A DNA stretch of 21,571 nt from Candidatus Omnitrophota bacterium (GTDB lineage Bacteria > Ratteibacteria > UBA8468 > MWAK01), in contig JAZDPL010000002.1 in assembly GCA_043797665.1 (NCBI GenBank), forward strand, positions 1-21,571. The letters are read 5' to 3'. The notes under the pieces were generated by a model. It was not told where the DNA came from. It searched no databases and was given only the letters and a program-made list of their open reading frames with translations. The position numbers and the translations under genes were made by a program. Each line of letters begins with the position of its first letter. The stretch's first letter is position 1. This document shows positions 3,258-20,483 of the stretch, in pieces.

Positions 3258-3321
3258 TGTCATTCTGAGGAGCGAAGCGACGAAGAATCCATATAGATTC
3301 TTCACTTTGTTCAGAATGACA
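3258..3321. repeat. TGTCATTCTGA-type REP-like inverted doublet, family C
   Basis: TGTCATTCTGAGGAGCGAAGCGACGAAGAATC-catata-GATTCTTCACTTTGTTCAGAATGACA; related copies at 16503-16594 and 20401-20483. Confidence 0.85.
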
Positions 3322-3350
3322 GGACGTTTTTGAATATTCACGATAAAAAA

Positions 3351-8736: not shown

Positions 8737-8842
8737 TGTCATTCCCGCATGTTTTTAGCGGGAATCCAATGAACCAGACAATGAATTCCGGCTTACTATC
8801 TGCCGGAATACGGGTTCTCTTTCCATAGGATTGGAAAGGGCA
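8737..8842. repeat. TGTCATTCC-type REP-like doublet, family E, interrupted at its right end by the 30-bp module
   Basis: TGTCATTCCCGCATGTTTTTAGCGGGAATCCA...TGAATTCCGGCTTACTATCTGCCGGAATA[module]CA; inverted homolog at 10588-10660. Confidence 0.8.
8811..8840 (+). repeat. 30-bp nested hairpin module, family D copy 1
   Basis: CGGGT-T-CTCTTTCCA-TAGGAT-TGGAAAGGG; 9-bp stem with one G-T pair. Confidence 0.8.
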
Positions 8843-8881
8843 ACTTAATTTTAAGACGCCTGTATTATTTAAGGTGAAACA

Positions 8882-9063
8882 GTAAATTACCCCGTGCTTC
8901 CGCACGGGGCATTGGGACATTAAAAATGTTTGTATTCAACATTCAAGGTAGGGGCTTGATTTATCAAGCCCGCGGGTCGGATAAATCCGACCCCTACAAT
9001 TTTGATTGCAAAACAGATCCAAAAGGAAACCCTTTCCTCCCCGTGCTGCCGCACGGGGTATCC
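8882..9063. mobile_element. putative non-autonomous IS200/IS605-like element bounded by two near-identical hairpins, family F; boundaries approximate
   Basis: CCCCGTGC-TTCC-GCACGGGG (8890-8909) and CCCCGTGC-TGCC-GCACGGGG (9039-9058) in direct orientation around an AT-rich non-coding interior. Confidence 0.5.
8948..8997. repeat. GTAG-type REP doublet, family B
   Basis: Exact reverse complement of 3815-3864. Confidence 0.9.
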
Positions 9064-9077
9064 AGGGTTTATTTTTC

Positions 9078-9767
9078 ATGAAAGATATTATTATCCTGGC
9101 TGTAATAATTTTCGCGGTAGCACCGGCAATTATCATCCTGCGTAAAGTCATCCCGGCCGGTATAAAATCCCGGAAAAGGTTAAAAGAAAGTTTTGACCAA
9201 ATCGCGGTTAAGATTGGCGGAAGAACAAACACTTCTTTTTTCAGTTTACCGGGTGTGGAAGGTAATTACAAAGGGATACCGGTCAAAATTATTTATAACG
9301 GCGGCGGTGAAGATACCCTGCCATACTTTAAAATTACTTTTTCCAGGAAACCACCTTTCTGGCTTACCCTGTATGAAGAAAATTCTCTGACCACGTTTGG
9401 TAAAAAACTCAGATTAGTAAAAGAGGTTGTTCTAAACGTTCCGGACTTTGACGAAAAGTTTTTTATCCGGACCAACGACAAAATGCGCAGCATCGTATTT
9501 CTTTCGGATTCCCGGAATAGGGAGACTATTATGCACCTGCACCAGCAGGGCTGGCGATTAACTTTTGGCAAATCTGCGGTAGAAGTTCAAAAAGTGCTCA
9601 AAACTAAAACGACGGAAATAGCAGCTAATTGGTCAAAAGAGGGTACCTCTTCTCTGCTGCGCACATTTCTTCCTCAAGCAAATTCTCCCGGCTTTTTTCA
9701 GACTAATCTAATCACACCCGATGAGGTGGTATTCTTGCTGGAAAGCCTTTATCAGTTGAGATATTAG
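9078..9767 (+). CDS. hypothetical protein with N-terminal transmembrane anchor
   Basis: 229-aa ORF from ATG 9078 (MKDIIILAVIIFAVAPAIIILRK). The ORF-track start at 9006 runs through a repeat hairpin. No family recognised. Confidence 0.7.
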   Translation: MKDIIILAVIIFAVAPAIIILRKVIPAGIKSRKRLKESFDQIAVKIGGRTNTSFFSLPGVEGNYKGIPVKIIYNGGGEDTLPYFKITFSRKPPFWLTLYEENSLTTFGKKLRLVKEVVLNVPDFDEKFFIRTNDKMRSIVFLSDSRNRETIMHLHQQGWRLTFGKSAVEVQKVLKTKTTEIAANWSKEGTSSLLRTFLPQANSPGFFQTNLITPDEVVFLLESLYQLRY

Positions 9768-9783
9768 GAGTTGTCCCTTAGCG

Positions 9784-10536
9784 ATGGAAAGGATAATCTT
9801 TGCACGTACGGAAGGACTAAAAGAAACCTTACCCAGTTTCTGCCCCGGCTGTGGTCACGGCATTCTGATGCGGGTAGTGGCTGAGGTTGTGGTGGAAATG
9901 GGCTTGAGGGAAAAAACCATCGGCATCGCTCCGGTAGGATGTGCGGTTACCGCCTACGACTACTGGAATTTTGACGTTACGGAAGCCGCGCACGGCCGGC
10001 CGCCCGCAGTCGCCACCGGAATCAAGCGGGTACTACCGGACCGACTGGTCTTTACCTACCAGGGAGACGGCGATTTGGCTGCGATCGGCACCGCGGAAAT
10101 TATTCACGCGGCCAACCGGGGTGAAAATATCACCACCATCTTTGTCAACAATGCGGTCTACGGAATGACCCGGGGTCAGATGGCACCCACCACGATGTTA
10201 GGCCAGAAAACTACCACAACCATCTCCGGCCGTGACCCGAAAATCCACGGTTACCCAATCCGGGTCTGCGAACTGTTAGCGGTTCTGGAAGGAACCACCT
10301 ATATCGAACGGATTGCCCTGATTGACCCCCCTTCGGTACAAAAAATAAAGCGGGCAATCCGCAAAGGATTTGAGTGCCAGTTAGCCGAAAAAGGATTTTC
10401 GCTGATTGAAGTCCTTTCTCCCTGTCCGGTAAACTGGGGTCTGGAACCAATAGAAGCGCTTAATTTCATTAAGGAAAAGATGGTGTCCACTTTCCCGCCC
10501 GGTGTAATTAAAGACAATTTTACTAAAAACAGTTAA
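9784..10536 (+). CDS. 2-oxoacid:ferredoxin oxidoreductase beta subunit (TPP-binding)
   Basis: FCPGCGHG, PVGC, HGRPPAVATG, YQGDGDLAAIG...NNAVYGMTxGQ, SPCP. Confidence 0.93.
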   Translation: MERIIFARTEGLKETLPSFCPGCGHGILMRVVAEVVVEMGLREKTIGIAPVGCAVTAYDYWNFDVTEAAHGRPPAVATGIKRVLPDRLVFTYQGDGDLAAIGTAEIIHAANRGENITTIFVNNAVYGMTRGQMAPTTMLGQKTTTTISGRDPKIHGYPIRVCELLAVLEGTTYIERIALIDPPSVQKIKRAIRKGFECQLAEKGFSLIEVLSPCPVNWGLEPIEALNFIKEKMVSTFPPGVIKDNFTKNS

Positions 10537-10548
10537 CTATGTTATACT
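10519..10548 (+). promoter_or_regulatory. putative sigma70-type promoter upstream of the ATPase operon
   Basis: TTTACT (10519-10524), 18-nt spacer, TATACT (10543-10548) with TG at the extended position. Confidence 0.5.
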
Positions 10549-10587
10549 AAATACTTCATGATTTTATAAATTCTCCAGTAAAGACGG

Positions 10588-10660
10588 TGTCATTCCTGTG
10601 GATAGTAAACAGGAATCCAGATTCTGTATAGATTCCCGCTTGAAACATGCGGGAATGACA
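10588..10660. repeat. TGTCATTCC-type REP-like doublet, family E
   Basis: TGTCATTCCTGTGGATAGTAAACAGGAATCCA...TAGATTCCCGCTTGAAACATGCGGGAATGACA; inverted homolog of the copy at 8737. Confidence 0.85.
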
Positions 10661-10681
10661 GACAATTTTGCGGAGGAAAAT

Positions 10682-11167
10682 ATGGACCTAAATATGTTGG
10701 GATTGGCAATCGCAATTCTGGGAGGAGCCTTGGCGGTCGGCTTAGCCGGCAGCGGCTCAGCAATTGGCGTGGCTCTGGCTGGTTCAGCCGCCAGCGGACT
10801 CATCGCGGAAGACCCGGAAAAATTCGGGGCGACCTTACTCCTGGTTGCCCTGCCGGGTACTCAGGGGATATACGGTTTCCTGACGGGATTCCTGGTGATT
10901 ATGAAATTAGGCCTCTTATCTGCCACGGTAATTAAACCCAGTCTATTTCAGGGAATCCAGATATTTGGAGCCTGTATGCCGATTGCCATCGCCGGTTTTA
11001 TCTCTGCAGTACACCAGGGAAAAGTCTGTGCGGCCGGAATCGGGGTGGCCGCCAAAAAACCGGAGGCGGCGATGAAAGCGCTGGTCTACGGCGCTCTGGT
11101 TGAAACCTACGCCATCTTAGGTCTGGTTATGTCCATATTCTTTCTGCAGGGTATTAAACTCCAGTAG
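10682..11167 (+). CDS. atpK: V/A-type ATPase subunit K (c), 4-TM double-hairpin type
   Basis: GGAGG at 10672-10676 before ATG 10682; GSAIGV, LPGTQGIYG, QGKVCAAGI, VETYAIL. Confidence 0.95.
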   Translation: MDLNMLGLAIAILGGALAVGLAGSGSAIGVALAGSAASGLIAEDPEKFGATLLLVALPGTQGIYGFLTGFLVIMKLGLLSATVIKPSLFQGIQIFGACMPIAIAGFISAVHQGKVCAAGIGVAAKKPEAAMKALVYGALVETYAILGLVMSIFFLQGIKLQ

Positions 11168-11170
11168 CCG

Positions 11171-11773
11171 ATGGCCGTTGAAAAACTGCTGAGTAAAATC
11201 CAGGAGGACGTTCAGAAAGAAACCGAAGAACTTCTCTCTCAAACAGACCGTGAAATCCAAGAACTGGAAAAGCAATTCCAGGAAAAATCCGTTCAAAGAG
11301 CGCAAGACTTAATTGCCCGGGGGGAACTGAAACTCAGACAGACTGCCGAAAGGGAACTCACCGCGGAACGGCTTTCCTCCCGGCGAAACATTTTAGCGGA
11401 AAAACAGAAAATATTGGAAGAAATCTACCAAACTGTGCTTGCTCAGATAAAAAAAGACCCGGAAAAACTCCGGGGGTTTTTCAGTACCAATCTGGAACTT
11501 TTAGCCCCGGGCAAATACCACCTGAAGATAGCCAAAGACTTGAGTGCAGTTCTATCCTCGGAGTGGGTCACCAGCACCACCGAACGTTTACAAAAAACCG
11601 GACGGAAGGTTGAATCGGTCACCTATCAGGATGACCTTTCCGGCGAAATAGTTCTTACCTCCGGTAAGATAGAATTAGCCCTTTCTCCCGAGAAAATACT
11701 TTCTTTAAAACGGCCGGAGACAGAAAAGGAACTGGCAAAACTGCTATTCAGGGAAAACAATACAACCGAATAG
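11171..11773 (+). CDS. atpE: V/A-type ATPase subunit E
   Basis: Position after K; charged coiled-coil N-terminus (MAVEKLLSKIQED), ILAEKQKILEEIY, ends ELAKLLF; 200 aa. Confidence 0.8.
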   Translation: MAVEKLLSKIQEDVQKETEELLSQTDREIQELEKQFQEKSVQRAQDLIARGELKLRQTAERELTAERLSSRRNILAEKQKILEEIYQTVLAQIKKDPEKLRGFFSTNLELLAPGKYHLKIAKDLSAVLSSEWVTSTTERLQKTGRKVESVTYQDDLSGEIVLTSGKIELALSPEKILSLKRPETEKELAKLLFRENNTTE

Positions 11774-11774
11774 A

Positions 11775-12680
11775 ATGACAAACTATGCGTATGCGGTTGG
11801 CAGAATCAGGGCTCTGGAAGCAAAGATGCTGGGACCGGAGCGTCTGGACCGTCTGGCAAATTTACCGACGCTGGACAACCTTCTTTCCGAAATAGGCGGG
11901 TCCGGTTATCTTGTTCCCGAAAAAGGAGATTTAGACTTTACGCCGTGGTTTGAAGAAGAAACAGAAAAACTTATCCATCTGTGTAACGGATTGCTTTCAG
12001 AAACAAAGTACCCTTTTTTCTACCGGCTTCCGGCCGACTTTTCCAATCTTTCTCTTCGGGCAAGAAAGGAAACCGGTCTTCCGGCAAAGGAGGAAGGATT
12101 TAATTCCTGGGGCATCATCAGGCTCCCCGATTTAGATTCGGTGTGGTCGGAAAAAGGGCTCTTCCTTTTACCGGAATTTCTGACTAAGGGTTTGGTGGAA
12201 GCCAAAAAGAGATTGGCTGACGAAGGAATTGCCGGATTTGAATTCGTGCTGGGTACTGCCGTCTTTAATTTATTAAAAGAAGCGGCGGGGGAAAGTATCC
12301 TGCTTCAGAGATTAGTGTCATTCTTTGTTGACCGGACCAACATCCGGTCTTTTCTTGCCGGAGGCAAACGTTTTATAGCAGACGGGGGACTCATATCAAC
12401 AGAAATTTTCCGGAAGAACCGGGATGCGGCTTTGATAACAATTGAATTTCATTATCCCCGGATGAAAGCTTACTTAAAACCCGGGTCATCTCAAGAGGAC
12501 CCAAAAGCGGCTGGGACATTCGGATTGGAAGAAGGCTTCCGCGATGTACAGGAAAAGATTCTGGAAGAGAGCCGGTTTATCAGTTTAGGTCCGGAGCCGG
12601 TAATTGCGTACTATTATCGCAAATCACGGGAATTCGCTAACCTGCGCCGGATTCTCTCTTTAAAAATTAGGGGTTGTTAA
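11775..12680 (+). CDS. atpC: V/A-type ATPase subunit C
   Basis: YAYAVGRIRALExxML N-terminus, DxxNI, GPEPVIAYYxxKxxExxNLR C-terminus. Confidence 0.88.
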   Translation: MTNYAYAVGRIRALEAKMLGPERLDRLANLPTLDNLLSEIGGSGYLVPEKGDLDFTPWFEEETEKLIHLCNGLLSETKYPFFYRLPADFSNLSLRARKETGLPAKEEGFNSWGIIRLPDLDSVWSEKGLFLLPEFLTKGLVEAKKRLADEGIAGFEFVLGTAVFNLLKEAAGESILLQRLVSFFVDRTNIRSFLAGGKRFIADGGLISTEIFRKNRDAALITIEFHYPRMKAYLKPGSSQEDPKAAGTFGLEEGFRDVQEKILEESRFISLGPEPVIAYYYRKSREFANLRRILSLKIRGC

Positions 12681-12688
12681 ACAACCCC
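12670..12688. repeat. 19-bp palindrome matching both termini of family A copy 2 (possible collapsed remnant)
   Basis: GGGGTTGT-TAA-ACAACCCC; 8-bp arms identical to the outer ends of 12981-13285; preceded by TTA. Confidence 0.55.
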
Positions 12689-12695
12689 ATAGACT

Positions 12696-12977
12696 ATGAG
12701 AATCGCATTTATCGGTGAAGAACTGGTATTTAAACCGTTCCTGGCGCTGGGACAGGAAGTCTACGGCGCTAAAGAGCCGGCAGAAGCAAGACAGGTTCTT
12801 GCTACACTCAACATCAAGGACTACGCTTTAATCGTTTTAACTCCGGAAGTGGCAGAGGTCCGGCAGGAATTTTCCGGTCCCATATTTCTGGTTCTCCCGG
12901 GTTTGAAAAACCAATCTTCCGGTCAGCAGAAATTAATCTCTGAGGCGATCCGACGCGCAACCGGCCGCGCGATTTAA
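12696..12977 (+). CDS. atpF: V/A-type ATPase subunit F
   Basis: MRIAFIGE..F..LG, YALIVLT, LP, IRRATG; size and operon position. Confidence 0.85.
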   Translation: MRIAFIGEELVFKPFLALGQEVYGAKEPAEARQVLATLNIKDYALIVLTPEVAEVRQEFSGPIFLVLPGLKNQSSGQQKLISEAIRRATGRAI

Positions 12978-12980
12978 TAA

Positions 12981-13285
12981 GGGGTTGTCGCAGAATAAAA
13001 CTAACTATTTGCCAGAGATGACCTTGGAGCGAGACAAGGAGCGAAGAAGATGGCGTACCCCCTGTGGTACGCAAGCGATGAGCGACGCAGTCGTAGCCCA
13101 AAAGCGACCTGGCCCTTTATGGGGAGTCCCATCTTTGGGTCATTGCGGCGTTGCTCCTTGGTTATGTGCCACAGTGGGCACAGCAACCTCCCTTGTCAAT
13201 CCTATGACAAGGGGACCCGTGTCGCGCCTTGCACTAACCTCAACTCCACGACTCCAAATAGTCAGTTTTATTCTGCGACAACCCC
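12981..13285. mobile_element. 305-bp MITE-like element, family A copy 2
   Basis: 31-bp TIRs (12981-13011 and 13255-13285, 30/31), flanked by TAA on both sides; colinear with copy 1 plus a 30-bp insert. Confidence 0.85.
13190..13219 (-). repeat. 30-bp nested hairpin module, family D copy 2
   Basis: Minus strand CGGGT-C-CCCTTGTCA-TAGGAT-TGACAAGGG; accounts exactly for the 305 vs 275 bp length difference. Confidence 0.85.
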
Positions 13286-13292
13286 TAAAAAG

Positions 13293-15044
13293 ATGGAACA
13301 GGGAGAAGTAGTTAAGGTATCCGGACCGCTGGTAGAAGCGGTGAAGATGGAAACCGCCCGGATGTATGACGTTGTCTACGTGGGGACCGAACGCTTAGTG
13401 GGGGAAATAATCCGCCTTTACAAAGATAGAGCCTCCATCCAGGTTTATGAGGATACCTCCGGTATCGGTCCCGGGGACCCGGTCTTCCTGTCCGGAGGTC
13501 CCCTGATGGTGGAATTGGGTCCGGGATTACTTTCCGGTATCTTCGACGGGATTCAACGTCCTTTGAACATCATCGCGGAAGAGATTGGACCCTTTGTCCG
13601 CCGGGGCGTCAGCATCCCTTCCCTGCCCCGGAAAAAGCCCTGGGACTTTACCGCACTTGCCAAAAAAGGTGATTCGGTCCAGCCTGGAGATATCCTGGGT
13701 ACGGTTCCGGAAACCTCGCTCATAACCCATAAAATACTGGTACCGCCGGACATCTCCGGAAAAATATCCGAGATTAAATCCGGCAGATTTACCATAGAAG
13801 ATTCTCTCGGTGTCATTCAGACCTCCTCCGGAGTGAAAGAGATAAAGATGTACCAAACCTGGCCGGTACGACAAGCCAGACCATACCGGGAAAAAATAAG
13901 ACCGGAGACACCCCTGGTAACCGGACAACGTGTGGTAGACACCCTTTTCCCCATTGCTAAAGGCGGTTCTGCCGCCATCCCCGGACCGTTTGGAGCCGGT
14001 AAGACCGTCTTCCTGCACCAGATTGCCAAATGGGCGAACAGCCAGATTATCGTCTATGTCGGCTGTGGAGAACGCGGCAACGAAATGGCTGACGTCCTTC
14101 TGGAATTTCCGGAATTGAAAGACCCCCAGAGCGGCCAGCCTTTAATGGAACGTACCATCCTCATCGCCAATACCTCCAATATGCCGGTCGCGGCGCGGGA
14201 AGCCAGTATCTATACCGGCATTACCCTGGCAGAATACTACCGGGATATGGGCTATGACGTAGCCTTAATGGCGGATTCAACCAGCCGCTGGGCTGAAGCC
14301 TTACGGGAAATCTCCGGCCGGATGGAGGAGATGCCGGGCGAAGAAGGTTATCCCGCTTACTTAGGCACCCGGGTCGCCGCATTCTACGAACGTAGCGGCC
14401 GGGTAATATGTCTGGGGAACGACTCCCGCTATGGTTCACTTACCGCAGTCGGAGCGGTCTCTCCACCCGGCGGTGACCTGAACGACCCGGTGGTCCAGAT
14501 GACCCTGCGCACGGTCAAAGCCTTCTGGTCTTTAGACGACCAACTGGCTTATCAACGACACTTTCCAGCCATCAACTGGCTCTCCAGTTATTCCCTGTAT
14601 CTGGAAAACCTGGACGGATTCTATCGCGGGGAGATTTCTTCCGAATTCCCCACCTTACGCAACTGGGCAATAGAAACCTTGAGCCGGGAAGCACAATTGC
14701 GTGAGATTGTCCGCTTAATCGGAACGGAAACTCTCTCTCTTTCGGAACGTCTAATTCTGGATACCGCCCGTTCTATTCGCGAAGACTTCCTGCACCAGTT
14801 CGCTTTTGACGAACGGGATGCCTATACCACCCTGACAAAACAGATGTTAATGCTTAAGGCAATTTACCTTTTCCACGAAAAGGCTGAAGAGGCAATCGCC
14901 GAAGGAATTCCCTTCAACAAAATTCTGGGAATGGCGGTCCGCGATGCCATCATCCAGGTCCGCTACGTGGCGGAAGAAGATTTAGCCTATTTTTCAAAAT
15001 TAGAACAGGAAATCATTACCACGTTCGAATCTTTACGCAAATAG
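13293..15044 (+). CDS. atpA: V/A-type ATPase catalytic subunit A
   Basis: MEQGEVVKVSGPLV start; GPFGAGKT Walker A, GCGERGNE, ADSTSRWAEALRE, MPGEEGYPAYL. Confidence 0.97.
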   Translation: MEQGEVVKVSGPLVEAVKMETARMYDVVYVGTERLVGEIIRLYKDRASIQVYEDTSGIGPGDPVFLSGGPLMVELGPGLLSGIFDGIQRPLNIIAEEIGPFVRRGVSIPSLPRKKPWDFTALAKKGDSVQPGDILGTVPETSLITHKILVPPDISGKISEIKSGRFTIEDSLGVIQTSSGVKEIKMYQTWPVRQARPYREKIRPETPLVTGQRVVDTLFPIAKGGSAAIPGPFGAGKTVFLHQIAKWANSQIIVYVGCGERGNEMADVLLEFPELKDPQSGQPLMERTILIANTSNMPVAAREASIYTGITLAEYYRDMGYDVALMADSTSRWAEALREISGRMEEMPGEEGYPAYLGTRVAAFYERSGRVICLGNDSRYGSLTAVGAVSPPGGDLNDPVVQMTLRTVKAFWSLDDQLAYQRHFPAINWLSSYSLYLENLDGFYRGEISSEFPTLRNWAIETLSREAQLREIVRLIGTETLSLSERLILDTARSIREDFLHQFAFDERDAYTTLTKQMLMLKAIYLFHEKAEEAIAEGIPFNKILGMAVRDAIIQVRYVAEEDLAYFSKLEQEIITTFESLRK

Positions 15045-15048
15045 GAAA

Positions 15049-15110
15049 CGGGCGTCATAAATGTCGCCCCTACATTTCAAATTTGTAGGGGTTTGATTTA
15101 TCAAACCCGC
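15049..15110. repeat. two GTAG-type REP units head-to-head, family B
   Basis: CGGGCGTCATAAATGTCGCCCCTAC (15049-15073, minus) and GTAGGGGTTTGATTTATCAAACCCGC (15085-15110, plus). Confidence 0.85.
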
Positions 15111-15115
15111 GTATT

Positions 15116-16513
15116 ATGGAAACGTTGCCCAAACAGTACCGGTCAGTGGTTGAAATCAGCGGTCCGCTTATTCTGGTGGAAAACGTCTCCGGAGTCAAGT
15201 TTAATGAAATCGCCGAGATAACTCTCCCGGACGGCTCCATCCGCCGGGGACAGGTCCTGGAATTGGACGGAGACAAGGCGCTCCTTCAGGTATTTGAAGG
15301 AACCACCGGCTTAAACCCTTTCCAGATAAAAGTCAGGTTTGAAGGCAAAGGACTGCAATTAGGAGTTTCACCGGATATTTTAGGCCGGGTCTTTGACGGC
15401 CTGGGCAGACCCATCGACAAAGGACCGGCCATATTGCCGGAAAAGTACCTGGATATTAACGGAAGCCCGATAAATCCCGTATCACGCGACTATCCGTCAG
15501 AATTTATACAAACCGGAATTTCCGCTATTGACGGGCTGAACAGCCTGGTCAGGGGCCAGAAACTTCCCATCTTCTCCGGAAGCGGATTACCCCACAACCG
15601 GCTGACCGCCCAGGTCTGCCGACAGAGTAAAGTTTTAGGAAAAGAAACAAAGTTTGGCATCGTCTTTGCGGCGATGGGCATCACCTTTGAAGAAGCCGAT
15701 TTCTTCATCCAGGACTTCCGGAAGACCGGTGCGATTGAACGGAGCGTGCTCTTTGTCAACCTGGCTGACGACCCGGCAATCGAGCGCATCGCTACGCCCA
15801 GATTGGCTCTGACTACTGCCGAGTATCTGGCGTTTGAATTGGGAATGCATATCCTGGTGGTACTTACCGATTTAACCAACTACGCGGAAGCCTTACGGGA
15901 AATTTCCGCAGCCCGCAATGAGGTGCCGGGCAGACGCGGCTACCCCAGTTATCTTTACACTGATTTGGCAACCATCTTTGAGCGAGCCGGACGGATTAAA
16001 GGTAAGACCGGTTCCATTACCCAGATGCCCATCCTCTCAATGCCTGAGGACGACAAGACCCATCCTATCCCTGACCTTACCGGTTACATTACGGAAGGGC
16101 AGATTATCCTTTCCCGGACCCTTCACCAGAGCGGCATCTACCCGCCGGTTGACGTTCTGCCTTCGCTTTCCCGGCTCCGGGACAAAGGGATTGGAACCGA
16201 TAGAACCAGGGAAGACCATCCCGCCTTAGCCAGTCAGTTGTTCGCCTCATACGCCCGAAGCCGGGAAGTCCGGGAATTAGCGATGGTGTTGGGCGAAGCG
16301 GCCCTTTCCGAAGAAGATAAACCCTACATAAATTTTGGAACCGCCTTTGAAAAAGAATTCTTAAATCAAAGCGAAAACGAAGACCGTTCCGTTATTCAAA
16401 CGCTGGATACCGGGTGGAAATTGCTGGCTATGTTACCGCGTGCCGAACTGAAACGTATCCGCCGGCCCATCCTGGAAAAATACCTCCCCGCAGATAAAGG
16501 AGTGTCATTCTGA
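15116..16513 (+). CDS. atpB: V/A-type ATPase subunit B
   Basis: [54 protein letters not shown]. Confidence 0.97.
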
Positions 16514-16594
16514 GTACGGGTACCCTTACAGTTGAATCTGTAAGGGAACGAAGAATCTAATCCTTCAGATCCTTCGCTGACGCTCAGGATGACA
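16503..16594. repeat. TGTCATTCTGA-type doublet, family C, with nested 30-bp module
   Basis: TGTCATTCTGAGTA[module]AACGAAGAATCT...AGATCCTTCGCTGACGCTCAGGATGACA; supplies the atpB TGA stop. Confidence 0.85.
16517..16546 (+). repeat. 30-bp nested hairpin module, family D copy 3
   Basis: CGGGT-A-CCCTTACAG-TTGAAT-CTGTAAGGG; perfect 9-bp stem. Confidence 0.85.
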
Positions 16595-16601
16595 AGAATC
16601 T

Positions 16602-17204
16602 ATGCTTAAGGTAAGTATGACCCGGATGGAGTTGCTGCGGCTCCGGCGCAGACTCGGCCTTGCCCGGCGCGGACACAAACTCCTCAAGGACAAGCAAGAA
16701 CAACTCCTCACCCAGTTTTACCGTTTAGTAGAAGAAAGCAAGGGTTTTCGCGGGAACTTAGAGAAGTCGTTCCACGAGACAGCCCGGGATTTTCTGACTG
16801 CCCAGTCCGGTTATCTCGGTTCAGAAACATATCAGTTCCTGGTACCGCCGCGCTTTCAGTCAACCTTAGAATTCCATACCAGCCGCCTGCTCAACGTCGC
16901 CGTCCCCAGATTCCATTCTCAGTGGACCGAAACAAAGCCGGTTTTTTCCCGGATGCCCTTAGACCTCCTGGCAATTATCCACAAATACCGGACAACCTAC
17001 GAAGAGATTCTTCGCCTGGCGGAATTGGAAACAATCCTCACCCTCTTTGCGGCTGAGATTGAAAAGACCCGGCGCCGGGTTAACAGTTTGGAGTACATCC
17101 TGATTCCGGAATTGGAACAGACTACCCGTTCCATAGAAATGCGCCTGGAAGAATCGGAACGGGAAAACTTCGTCCGCCTCCGCCACATCAAGCAGCAGGC
17201 CTGA
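16602..17204 (+). CDS. atpD: V/A-type ATPase subunit D
   Basis: TRMELLRLRRRLxxAxRGHKLLKDK, EIEKTRRRVNSLEY, LEESERENFVRL. Confidence 0.95.
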   Translation: MLKVSMTRMELLRLRRRLGLARRGHKLLKDKQEQLLTQFYRLVEESKGFRGNLEKSFHETARDFLTAQSGYLGSETYQFLVPPRFQSTLEFHTSRLLNVAVPRFHSQWTETKPVFSRMPLDLLAIIHKYRTTYEEILRLAELETILTLFAAEIEKTRRRVNSLEYILIPELEQTTRSIEMRLEESERENFVRLRHIKQQA

Positions 17205-17206
17205 GG

Positions 17207-17295
17207 GTAGGGGCTCAATTTATTACGGGTCCCCTTCCCATTGAATTGGGAAGGGTGCCCGAAAAATATGCGGGTCGGATGAATCCGACCCCTAC
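17207..17295. repeat. GTAG-type REP doublet, family B, left unit interrupted by the 30-bp module
   Basis: GTAGGGGCTCAATTTATTA[module]TGCCCG...GCGGGTCGGATGAATCCGACCCCTAC. Confidence 0.85.
17226..17255 (+). repeat. 30-bp nested hairpin module, family D copy 4
   Basis: CGGGT-C-CCCTTCCCA-TTGAAT-TGGGAAGGG; perfect 9-bp stem. Removal restores a 25-nt REP unit. Confidence 0.85.
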
Positions 17296-18359: not shown

Positions 18360-19522
18360 AAGATTTTATTGTAGGTTCAGAAGCGGTAGCCAGAGCCGCC
18401 GCACTCTGCAAACCAGGGGTTATTTCCGCCTATCCGATTACCCCCCAGACCATCATTGTGGAATCCCTGGCCCAGATGGTTGCTGACGGCCGGCTCAAGA
18501 GTCAGTTTATCAACGTGGAGAGTGAACACTCTGCGGCGTCTGCGGTATTAGGCGCAGTGGCAGCCGGAGAACGGGTCTTTACCGCCAGTTCTTCCCAGGG
18601 ACTCATCCTGATGAGCGAGGTCCTTTTTAACATCGCCGGAATGCGGATGCCGGTGGTCCTGGCTTGCGTCAACCGGGCTATTTCCGCACCCATCAACATC
18701 TGGAATGACCAGCAGGATTCCATGGCGGTAAGGGACAGCGGATGGCTCCAGTTCTATGCGGAAAACAACCAGGAGGCAGTGGACTTAATTATCCAGGCTT
18801 ACCGGATAGGCGAAGACCCTGAGATTTGCTTGCCGGTAATGGTGTGCCTGGACGGCTACATCCTGAGCCACGGCTACGAAACGGTTGACCTTCCGGAAGA
18901 AAAGGCGGTCGCTTCATTTTTACCTCCCTTCGCTCCGGCGGAAAAATTAGACCCGGCTAATCCTAAGAGTTTCGGCCTGCTGGCCGGTCCGGACTATTAT
19001 CTGGAAATCAGGCATGATTTACATCAGGCAAACAAAAAAACTCTTTCCCTCATTCCGGAGGTAGTTTCGGAATTCAAAAAGGTCTTCGGTCGCACCTCAG
19101 GCGGTCTGATAGAAACCTATCAACTGGACGATGCGGAATGTGCCATCGTGGCGGCCGGTTCGGTCTGCGGCACGATTAAGGAAACGATAGATGCACTCAG
19201 AAAAGAAGGAACAAAAGCCGGCTTATTGCGGCTCATCACTTACCGGCCGTTCCCCGGAGAGCAAATCTATGATGCTATGAAAAATGTCCCGGCGATTGCG
19301 GTCCTGGACAAAGCGATTTCCTTAGGAGCGACCGGTCCCGTCTATGCGGACATAAAAACCATTTTCCAGGGAAAAAAGGCGGTTCCTAAAATCAGCGGAT
19401 TCATCGCCGGATTGGGGGGCCGGGACATTACGCCGGATACCGTCCGGGATGTCTTCAGGCGTCTGGCGGGTACGGAGGTAGACGACGGGTTTATCGGTCT
19501 GAAAGGAGTTAGCGATGGCTGA
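18356..19522 (+). CDS. porA: pyruvate/2-oxoacid:ferredoxin oxidoreductase alpha subunit
   Basis: [47 protein letters not shown]. Confidence 0.95.
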
Positions 19523-20395
19523 ACATCTTCTCTCACCAGGGCATACCGCCTGCGCCGGCTGCGGTCAGTCTATGGCGGCCCGACTGGTCATTGACGCCGC
19601 CGGACCCAACACCATTGTGGTCAACAACACCGGATGTTTAGAGGTCTTTACTTCAGCCTATCCTGATTCAGCCTGGGAAGTCCCGTTTATCCATTCTCTC
19701 TTTGAAAACGCCGCGGCGGTCGCCTCCGGTGTGGAATCCGCCCTGAAACAACAGGGGAGATTAGGAGAAGTCAGGGTCATCGCTCAGGCCGGGGACGGCG
19801 GAACCGCAGATCTCGGTCTTCAGGCTCTTTCCGGGATGTGGGAACGGGTCATGACATCCCTTCTATCTGTTACGACAACGAAGCCTACCTGAACACCGGC
19901 ATCCAGCTCAGCGGCATGACGCCAACCTACACTTCCACCACCACCAGTCCGGCCGGTAAGTCTTCCCTGGGAAACCCCCGGCCCAAGAAAAATATGTTAG
20001 AGATTGCGGTAGCGCACGGTATTCCTTACGCCGCCACCGCCTCGGCCGGTTTCCCGATGGATTTACAAAAGAAGGTAAAAAAGGCAATGGCTATCCGCGG
20101 TCCCAAGTATCTTCACATCCAGGTACCCTGTCCGTTGGGCTGGCGCCACGAATCAAGCCTTACCTACCAGATTGCCCGGTTAGCGGTTGAAACCGGACTC
20201 TTTCCTATGGTAGAATTTGAAAATGGGACCCTTTCCGGTGCCTATACGATTTCGCAGCCAAAACCGGTGGTAGAGTATCTGAAGCCCCAGGGAAGGTTCC
20301 GACACCTCTTCAAGCCCGGTGCGGAAGAAGCCCTGAAAGAGATACAGGAAATTGCCAATAAGAATATTGCACGCTACAATTTAATAAAGATATAA
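19515..20395 (+). pseudogene. porB: pyruvate/2-oxoacid:ferredoxin oxidoreductase beta subunit with a 1-nt frameshift (real lesion or sequencing error)
   Basis: ORF 19515-19892 has [33 protein letters not shown] 19838-20395 has GHD..CYDNEAY.NTGIQ, PCPLGW, QGRF. Adding one G at 19846-19848 gives the continuous WERGHDI. Confidence 0.85.
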
Positions 20396-20400
20396 CCCTA

Positions 20401-20483
20401 TGTCATCCTGAGCGTAGCGAAGGATCTATCTTAGATTCTTCACTCTGTTCAGAATGACAGGAAGCGAAGGATTCAGGATGACA
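20401..20483. repeat. TGTCATCCTGA-type doublet, family C, plus a third partial unit
   Basis: TGTCATCCTGAGCGTAGCGAAGGATCT...AGATTCTTCACTCTGTTCAGAATGACA (20401-20459), then ...TTCAGGATGACA ending at 20483. Confidence 0.85.

Follow-up and report, generated by a model that had tools for sequence, protein, structure and literature searches.

The window analysed here is a stretch of 21,571 nucleotides from contig JAZDPL010000002.1 of a Candidatus Omnitrophota bacterium, whose 2.69-Mb genome (86% complete) is referred to below as G000. Between what we take, from translations rather than from scans, to be a 2-oxoacid oxidoreductase subunit gene and a V-type ATPase operon, the window carries four copies of a 30-nt hairpin, each preceded by A and each lying inside its own, different host repeat; an original prediction, made from the letters of the window, had described them exactly in sequence, strand and coordinates. 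Analysis of the whole genome, of the same-genus relative G054 and of larger collections showed that the hairpin is a real, non-coding and mobile element forming a new family of an already described kind. New here are its sister subfamilies, a reading-frame filter on the copies inside genes, and a tested junction rule that we cannot match to known insertion chemistry.

Copy 1 (8811-8840, plus strand; subfamily 1, hereafter SF1; 30 nt) lies in a TGTC-tagged hairpin at 8782-8842 that resembles repetitive extragenic palindromic (REP) sequences; it is preceded by A at 8810 and takes the place of GA in the host end GGAAT-GA-CA, and empty relatives of this host are found at 8737-8768 and 10631-10662. 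Copy 2 (13190-13219, minus strand, junction A at 13220) lies in a long palindromic repeat of family A at 12979-13288, which has an empty counterpart at 2132-2411. One stem type is present in 10 of 10 filled family A repeats, so these likely go back to a single insertion carried along by the host. Copy 3 (16517-16546, plus strand, junction A at 16516) occupies a TGTC-tagged double hairpin at 16503-16594 with empty relatives near 3259-3324 and 20401-20483; a 2-nt middle was present in 30 of the 32 exact-flank empty sites (most commonly GA, 12 cases), so the net gain is 29 nt. Copy 4 (17226-17255, plus strand, junction A at 17225) is hosted by a GTAG-tagged REP dimer at 17207-17295, of a class shared with the repeats that flank the RAYT gene of G000. 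The inner stems of the four copies are paired at 16 of 16 positions, as predicted, while the claim of a conserved outer stem and loop needs two corrections: the outer stem of copy 1 holds one T-G pair, and the genome-wide loop consensus is TNGRAT. Rfam covariance models produced no match in the window at E values up to 1.

How large is the family to which these copies belong? A structure-aware descriptor recovered 106 copies in the genome (preceded by A in 74, by G in 31 and by T in 1) and none in the reversed genome, so the copies in the window are by no means the only ones. A wider descriptor produced a joint catalogue of 164 copies (108 of SF1, 30 of SF2, 19 of SF3 and 7 of SF4), with none in either the reversed or the dinucleotide-shuffled genome; two doubtful SF2 rows were removed afterwards, which left 162 copies for most later counts. 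One loose descriptor failed the reversed-genome control because reversed GTAG dimers mimic its pattern, and it was replaced by stricter descriptors and the shuffle. With a pattern that fixed the conserved letters only and left the inner stem free, Watson-Crick pairs made up 336 of the 340 inner pairs in 85 copies. Over 59 distinct sequences the inner-pair match was 98.7%, whereas 10,000 shuffles of the arms gave 54% on average and 67% at most.

The unit consists of a 6-nt tail and a hairpin whose inner stem is variable yet paired. The features of miniature inverted-repeat transposable elements are absent: the tail is asymmetric, so there are no terminal inverted repeats, and the target is not duplicated. 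A search for lone left ends led to the 25-nt sister subfamilies SF2, SF3 and SF4. SF2 combines the tail of SF1 (CGGGTN) with a shorter stem, whereas the tails of SF3 and SF4 read CGGGGW and CGAGGA, respectively. In SF4, joint changes affect tail position 3, stem position 8 and the second-last base, so that bases 2-4 are identical to the last three bases in each of the four subfamilies. All four subfamilies have this anatomy in common and nest in one another.

The distribution of the element is narrow. The strict SF1 pattern was present in 7 of 65 genomes of the phylum, all from one family of Ca. Ratteibacteria, with 65 copies in G000, 32 in G054 and 1-3 in each of five others. A scan of 185,579 GTDB genomes with the strict 30-nt pattern revealed 42 loci, which equals the count in the six carrier relatives of G000, under the titles uncultured bacterium, Ca. 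Omnitrophota or Ca. Ratteibacteria. For the 25-nt subfamilies, the search covered the 65 phylum genomes, IMG/VR and PLSDB rather than all of GTDB, and among the phylum genomes they exceeded the control only in G000 and G054. The JGI metagenomes contributed 103 loci, 92 of them with a blastn match in G000; among the remaining 11 are four whose stems do not pair and which seem to be chance matches. No matches were found in IMG/VR (three patterns) or in PLSDB (two queries).

A key question is whether the element itself moves. Eight orthologous sites are filled in G054 and empty in G000, with net differences of +24, +29 or +48, and five of them lie in unique coding DNA (pheT twice, rfaE, iolB and a radical-SAM-associated gene). 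Together with self-nesting, these sites make it highly probable that we are dealing with an independently mobile mini-element, as had been proposed. Two perfect head-to-tail doubles of period 24 consist of identical units with a flanking match of 1 nt only; a third tandem, L169, has a flanking match of 6 nt and may be the result of slippage. Double and triple self-nests were seen at L156, L144, L129, L150 and L222, each at the GA of a TTGAAT-type loop. At one orthologous site (L154 vs C45), the two genomes contain different stem types, which came about either by repeated insertion or by conversion. Another pair, L173 and C89, seemed orthologous and was not confirmed. In the sequencing runs, contigs that were covered twice came from relatives roughly 92% alike; they showed no excision joint, which is an uninformative result.

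All four copies in the window are indeed neither free nor in coding DNA, but the genome contains both unique-DNA and in-gene copies, and the proposal that the element is tolerated only in intergenic repeats is contradicted by frame-neutral forms inside mutM, cobQ, fmt and pheT. Deep in long open reading frames (ORFs), 7 of 11 variants of 31 nt (net +30) were found, compared with 1 of 92 copies of 30 nt (p = 1e-7), and the extra base differs between copies, which indicates that it arose more than once. In-frame copies are present in mutM, cobQ, fmt, folP, murG and folC, all over the NCBIfam cut-offs, and also in hypF-, queE- and mfd-like genes. In MutM, host and element together form a 20-residue in-frame insert that is absent in three relatives. 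This frame filter is independent support for the net length of the insertion. In a comparison of metagenome L137 with C21 of G000, a free SF1 copy was noticed in unique DNA just upstream of a start codon, at an apparent ribosome-binding site.

The suggested targeting of repeats holds as a strong preference, although not as an obligate one. Non-coding copies lie in or beside repeats in 82 of 105 cases, compared with 23-27% of comparable steps, and copies called coding do so in 25 of 50 cases, compared with an expected 3-4%; as coding status was assigned by a simple ORF caller and passengers multiply along with their hosts, the p-values exaggerate this preference. About a dozen copies lie in unique DNA without a hairpin. 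Thus, several kinds of repeat are preferred but not required. As regards the hosts themselves, G000 and G054 (L013-L052, L083-L102), at approximately 90% gene identity, carry intergenic repeats of different families that replace each other at the same positions, which indicates that host repeats turn over very fast.

Another important question is what exactly happens to the target. Among 154 distinct flank sets, 82 have an empty homologue in the genome, and in 70 of these 82 the empty site has a 2-nt middle. Where A precedes the element, the middle is GA in 30 flank sets and GG in 1; where G precedes it, the middle is GG in 23 and GA in 2 (p = 2e-12). The junction rule is therefore GA -> A[unit]G and GG -> G[unit]G, and since a 2-nt middle is compared with a purine plus the element, the net gain is 29 nt for SF1 or 24 nt for the sister subfamilies. 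Removal of 30 nt, which had been expected to restore the empty sites, does so for copy 4, but under the rule the difference is 29 nt, and the 30 nt of family A copy 2 are composed of these 29 and a separate nearby base. The host consensus contains GA and not AG at this step (CAGAAT-GA-CA in 202 cases vs AG in 2); since hosts are nearly devoid of AG, GA -> A[unit]G does not represent insertion into AG. In silico excision according to the rule restored seven outer elements in full, of which three had been interrupted at GA and four at GG steps.

Which purine precedes the unit depends on the target site and not on the element. Site clusters with several copies are purine-pure in 29 of 33 cases though they hold up to eight element types, and single element types occur with both A and G before them. 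The target purine is not predicted by the base at the foot of the hairpin (p = 0.19), so no tail-target link is seen. Taken over 148 sites, the target has the loose, purine-rich consensus R R B [G R] V R, which applies on either strand; A stands at position -1 in 1 site and T at position +1 in 6. As predicted, flank comparisons revealed no target duplication. Both orientations of the element occur within single contigs, and orientation is not biased with respect to GC skew (74 of 155, p = 0.63; on short contigs a weak proxy) or to the nearest gene (84 of 155).

These data are best explained, with a probability of roughly 0.55, by a 24-29 base insert that has been copied into about 160 sites by a trans-acting strand-transfer enzyme working on DNA and that converts a G-purine step into purine-[unit]-G. 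A single-stranded copy of the element would be recognised by its shape; the enzyme, acting in trans, would open the target on both sides of the G-purine step and join the copy there. REP-type hosts would be favoured as often exposed and neutral, host repeats would carry the element as a passenger when they are themselves copied, and purifying selection would remove frame-breaking copies from genes, leaving the net +24 and +30 forms. The insertion chemistry in this scheme is put forward tentatively. A simple cut-and-join keeps the order of the two target bases and a core-homology crossover would duplicate them, so neither accounts for the two-base reordering. It is conceivable, if rather unlikely, that GA -> A[unit]G is the footprint of an undescribed chemistry in which an enzyme reads hairpins of 24-29 nt by shape and reorders two bases, and that this enzyme may move the whole class of ultra-small, self-nesting elements. 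On this reading, these elements would be parasites of REP-type repeats and among the smallest mobile DNA. The family also illustrates how working enzymes can acquire 8-10 codons at a time. It offers many natural events, two net lengths, nested series, orthologous empty sites and a well-defined junction rule against which any proposed enzyme can be measured, and it thereby makes testable the question, raised when such repeats were described in cyanobacteria, of how DNA too short for two transposon ends moves.

Several observations weigh against this explanation. In 12 of the 82 flank sets there is no 2-nt middle; these include family A and copy 4 of the window, for which seven empty sites give a net gain of 30 nt, one base longer than the rule predicts and a true exception to it. 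A further 14 flank sets have a 2-nt middle that is neither GA nor GG, mostly in variable host loops. Of the eight orthologous pairs, seven are GG and the eighth (L102, with a diverged flank) has GA in the empty and G in the filled site, so the GA swap has no direct orthologous test. A weak association between element type and junction purine (p = 0.003) would be compatible with a purine borne by the element, and amplification of the host repeats makes copies non-independent and inflates the p-values. The idea that extruded hairpins are targeted fared poorly: at 16 unique sites picked by hand, the folding of the targets is no better than background (-4.7 vs -5.6 kcal/mol), and within repeats the steps used are not less paired than those around them, so that exposure of the hosts is not shown. 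Finally, no mover enzyme was found among the candidates in G000, and we infer every step of the chemistry.

Which candidates does the genome contain? G000 has a RAYT-like gene (L054 1290-2020, C47), below the NCBIfam cut-off and flanked by GTAG REP arrays, with copies 82-85% identical in two members of the family; the element nearest to it is 2.2 kb away, and in G058 one copy is nested in a flanking REP. A GIY-YIG gene is flanked by TGTC-tagged repeats, and both this gene and the RAYT gene likely serve the host repeats. G000 also carries two IS110 genes, stand-alone GIY-YIG genes and a DUF559-like gene. A 450-aa ORF (L053 1375-2727, C3) fuses a degenerate Y1 transposase domain to an unknown part and extends across several repeats, among them a triple nest of SF1, SF3 and SF4, and a diversity-generating retroelement (L062 612-2328, C50) consists of Avd, a template-repeat-like stretch and a reverse transcriptase. 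None of the RAYT, Y1 fusion, two IS110, retroelement reverse transcriptase, GIY-YIG or DUF559-like genes is bounded by the element, no TnpB was found in G000, and lone left ends revealed only short or nested forms and no parent element with the same ends in this 86% complete genome. ORFs adjoining copies appeared by eye, without a scan, to be of housekeeping or toxin-antitoxin type. Candidate genes were compared with the distribution of carriers for DUF559 (27 of 65 genomes), RAYT (12 of 65), reverse transcriptase (3 of 9) and Y1 (7 of 9), IS110 and GIY-YIG being outside this comparison, and none tracked the carriers; with genomes 54-97% complete and all carriers in one clade, this evidence is weak.

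The main alternative to DNA strand transfer is an RNA-templated route, in which a reverse transcriptase primes at a nicked target and may copy twice, leaving a small target loss and tandem units. It would explain the two perfect period-24 doubles, the reverse transcriptase of G000 is accompanied by Avd, and the same-genus carrier has two reverse transcriptases; moreover, small target deletions are known from the target-primed retro-insertion of R2 elements. We nevertheless regard this route as improbable, since a reverse transcriptase occurs in so few of the family genomes and was not found in four low-copy carriers, while that of G000 belongs to the diversity-generating retroelement and is separated by 17 kb from the closest element. 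Insertion also shows no bias with respect to gene direction, and adenine-specific mutagenesis would not yield compensated stems.

In IS200/IS605-type insertion, target bases are neither gained nor lost. The original prediction pointed to features typical of HUH (Y1) substrates. If the hairpin were an ordinary substrate of this kind, it would be moved as single-stranded DNA by the RAYT of the genome or by an IS200/IS605-type transposase, and the tail-plus-hairpin anatomy, the lack of duplication, the RAYT-like gene and the GG sites, which are compatible with clean insertion, agree with this. Viewed from the other strand, filled sites have the form C[unit]T or C[unit]C, and C|T is the cutting site of TnpA-REP (PMC8266576). 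However, a clean C|T insertion requires AG on the element strand and empty hosts have GA: the junction loses or moves a base. The lack of any relation between foot base and target purine argues in the same direction, as do the lack of strand bias in the GC-skew comparison (a weak proxy on short contigs), the lack of a Y1, RAYT or IS200/IS605 gene bounded by the element and of TnpB in G000, and the presence of GTAG REPs rather than the element on either side of the RAYT gene. Close RAYT homologues are also present in four non-carriers, and two incomplete carriers yielded none. On balance, movement by a known HUH enzyme appears unlikely to us.

Could the copies instead be a few old insertions that spread only as passengers of host repeats, their stems reshuffled by gene conversion, with no mobility of their own today? 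The single stem type of family A, the whole host repeats that come and go at orthologous sites and the different stem types at L154 and C45 fit such a history. It is largely refuted by the precise element-only differences at orthologous unique coding sites, and 227 copies in 140 distinct site contexts as well as subfamilies nested in each other also speak against it, so it is very unlikely. Least probable is a regulatory hairpin (terminator, RNA-stability or protein-binding site) selected for host function, which the strictly paired stem and the many copies between operon genes, as in the window, would suit, but which random orientation, nesting that disrupts the element itself, presence/absence between close relatives and in-frame copies in unrelated enzymes contradict.

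With regard to novelty, a literature search that did not include ISfinder or Elhai et al. 2008 revealed no published account of this family; together with the negative database searches above, this agrees with the prediction that no described family is involved, although the kind has been described. The closest kind is that of the small dispersed repeats (SDR) of Nostoc (Elhai et al. 2008, Genome Res 18:1484; PMC2527708). In Nostocaceae these reportedly form compensated hairpins and nest in themselves and in other repeats, likenesses that the present element shares, and they have no known mover. SDR1-8 of Nostocaceae are dispersed sequences of ~20-30 nt, probably mobile, precisely inserted and restricted to a lineage, and for SDR5 the insertion point lies between bases 3 and 4 of GCGATCGC (PMC4390886, PMC5861425, PMC2884548). 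Our element resembles them in size (net 24 and 29 nt, with 164 dispersed copies) and in its precise presence/absence between relatives, and resembles SDR5 in its insertion at a G|A step; it differs in belonging to another phylum and in its target, here a loose purine-rich step and in SDR5 a fixed octamer. The comparison with SDR1-8 covers descriptions in citing papers rather than sequences, and a junction of a similar type may already be on record for those repeats.

The REP and REPIN sequences associated with RAYT share with the element a short 5' tail at the hairpin foot, a high copy number and a mostly extragenic location with some in-frame copies (PMC8266576, PMC6006769, PMC3733652, PMC3116915), and the C|T cleavage by TnpA-REP is guided by a tetranucleotide (PMC8266576). 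Unlike them, the element has no GTAG or CGTC tag, is a single unit rather than a doublet and does not flank the RAYT gene, and REPs are its hosts. The ends of IS200/IS605 and the PATEs likewise lack terminal inverted repeats and target duplication and have a hairpin near the end (PMC6006769, PMC3119063); the element differs from both in its one hairpin, far shorter length, lack of a fixed 4-5 nt target and non-conservative junction, and in that no parent was found. IS200/IS605 targets are guide-selected and on the lagging strand (PMC6006769), a signal that is absent here as far as GC skew on short contigs, a weak proxy, can indicate. The SMR of Haloquadratum walsbyi, whose mover is called enigmatic, are also transposase-free, do not duplicate the target and prefer palindromes of other mobile elements, but are 80-110 bp long, archaeal and bounded by terminal inverted repeats (PMC3119063). 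The palindromic elements of Rickettsia resemble ours in lying in frame within working genes and differ in their longer, REP-like units, and neither self-nesting nor the GA -> A[unit]G junction is part of the available portion of their description (PMC3733652).

Two further stretches of the window deserve mention. Positions 8882-9061, between short palindromes, contain a GTAG dimer, and their first ~100 bases recur at the end of C36 of G000 (the end of L059), where they truncate a GIY-YIG gene; this stretch may be another composite mobile repeat. At 19515-20395, two overlapping ORFs resemble one gene, presumably that for an oxidoreductase beta subunit, split by a frameshift that may be an assembly error.

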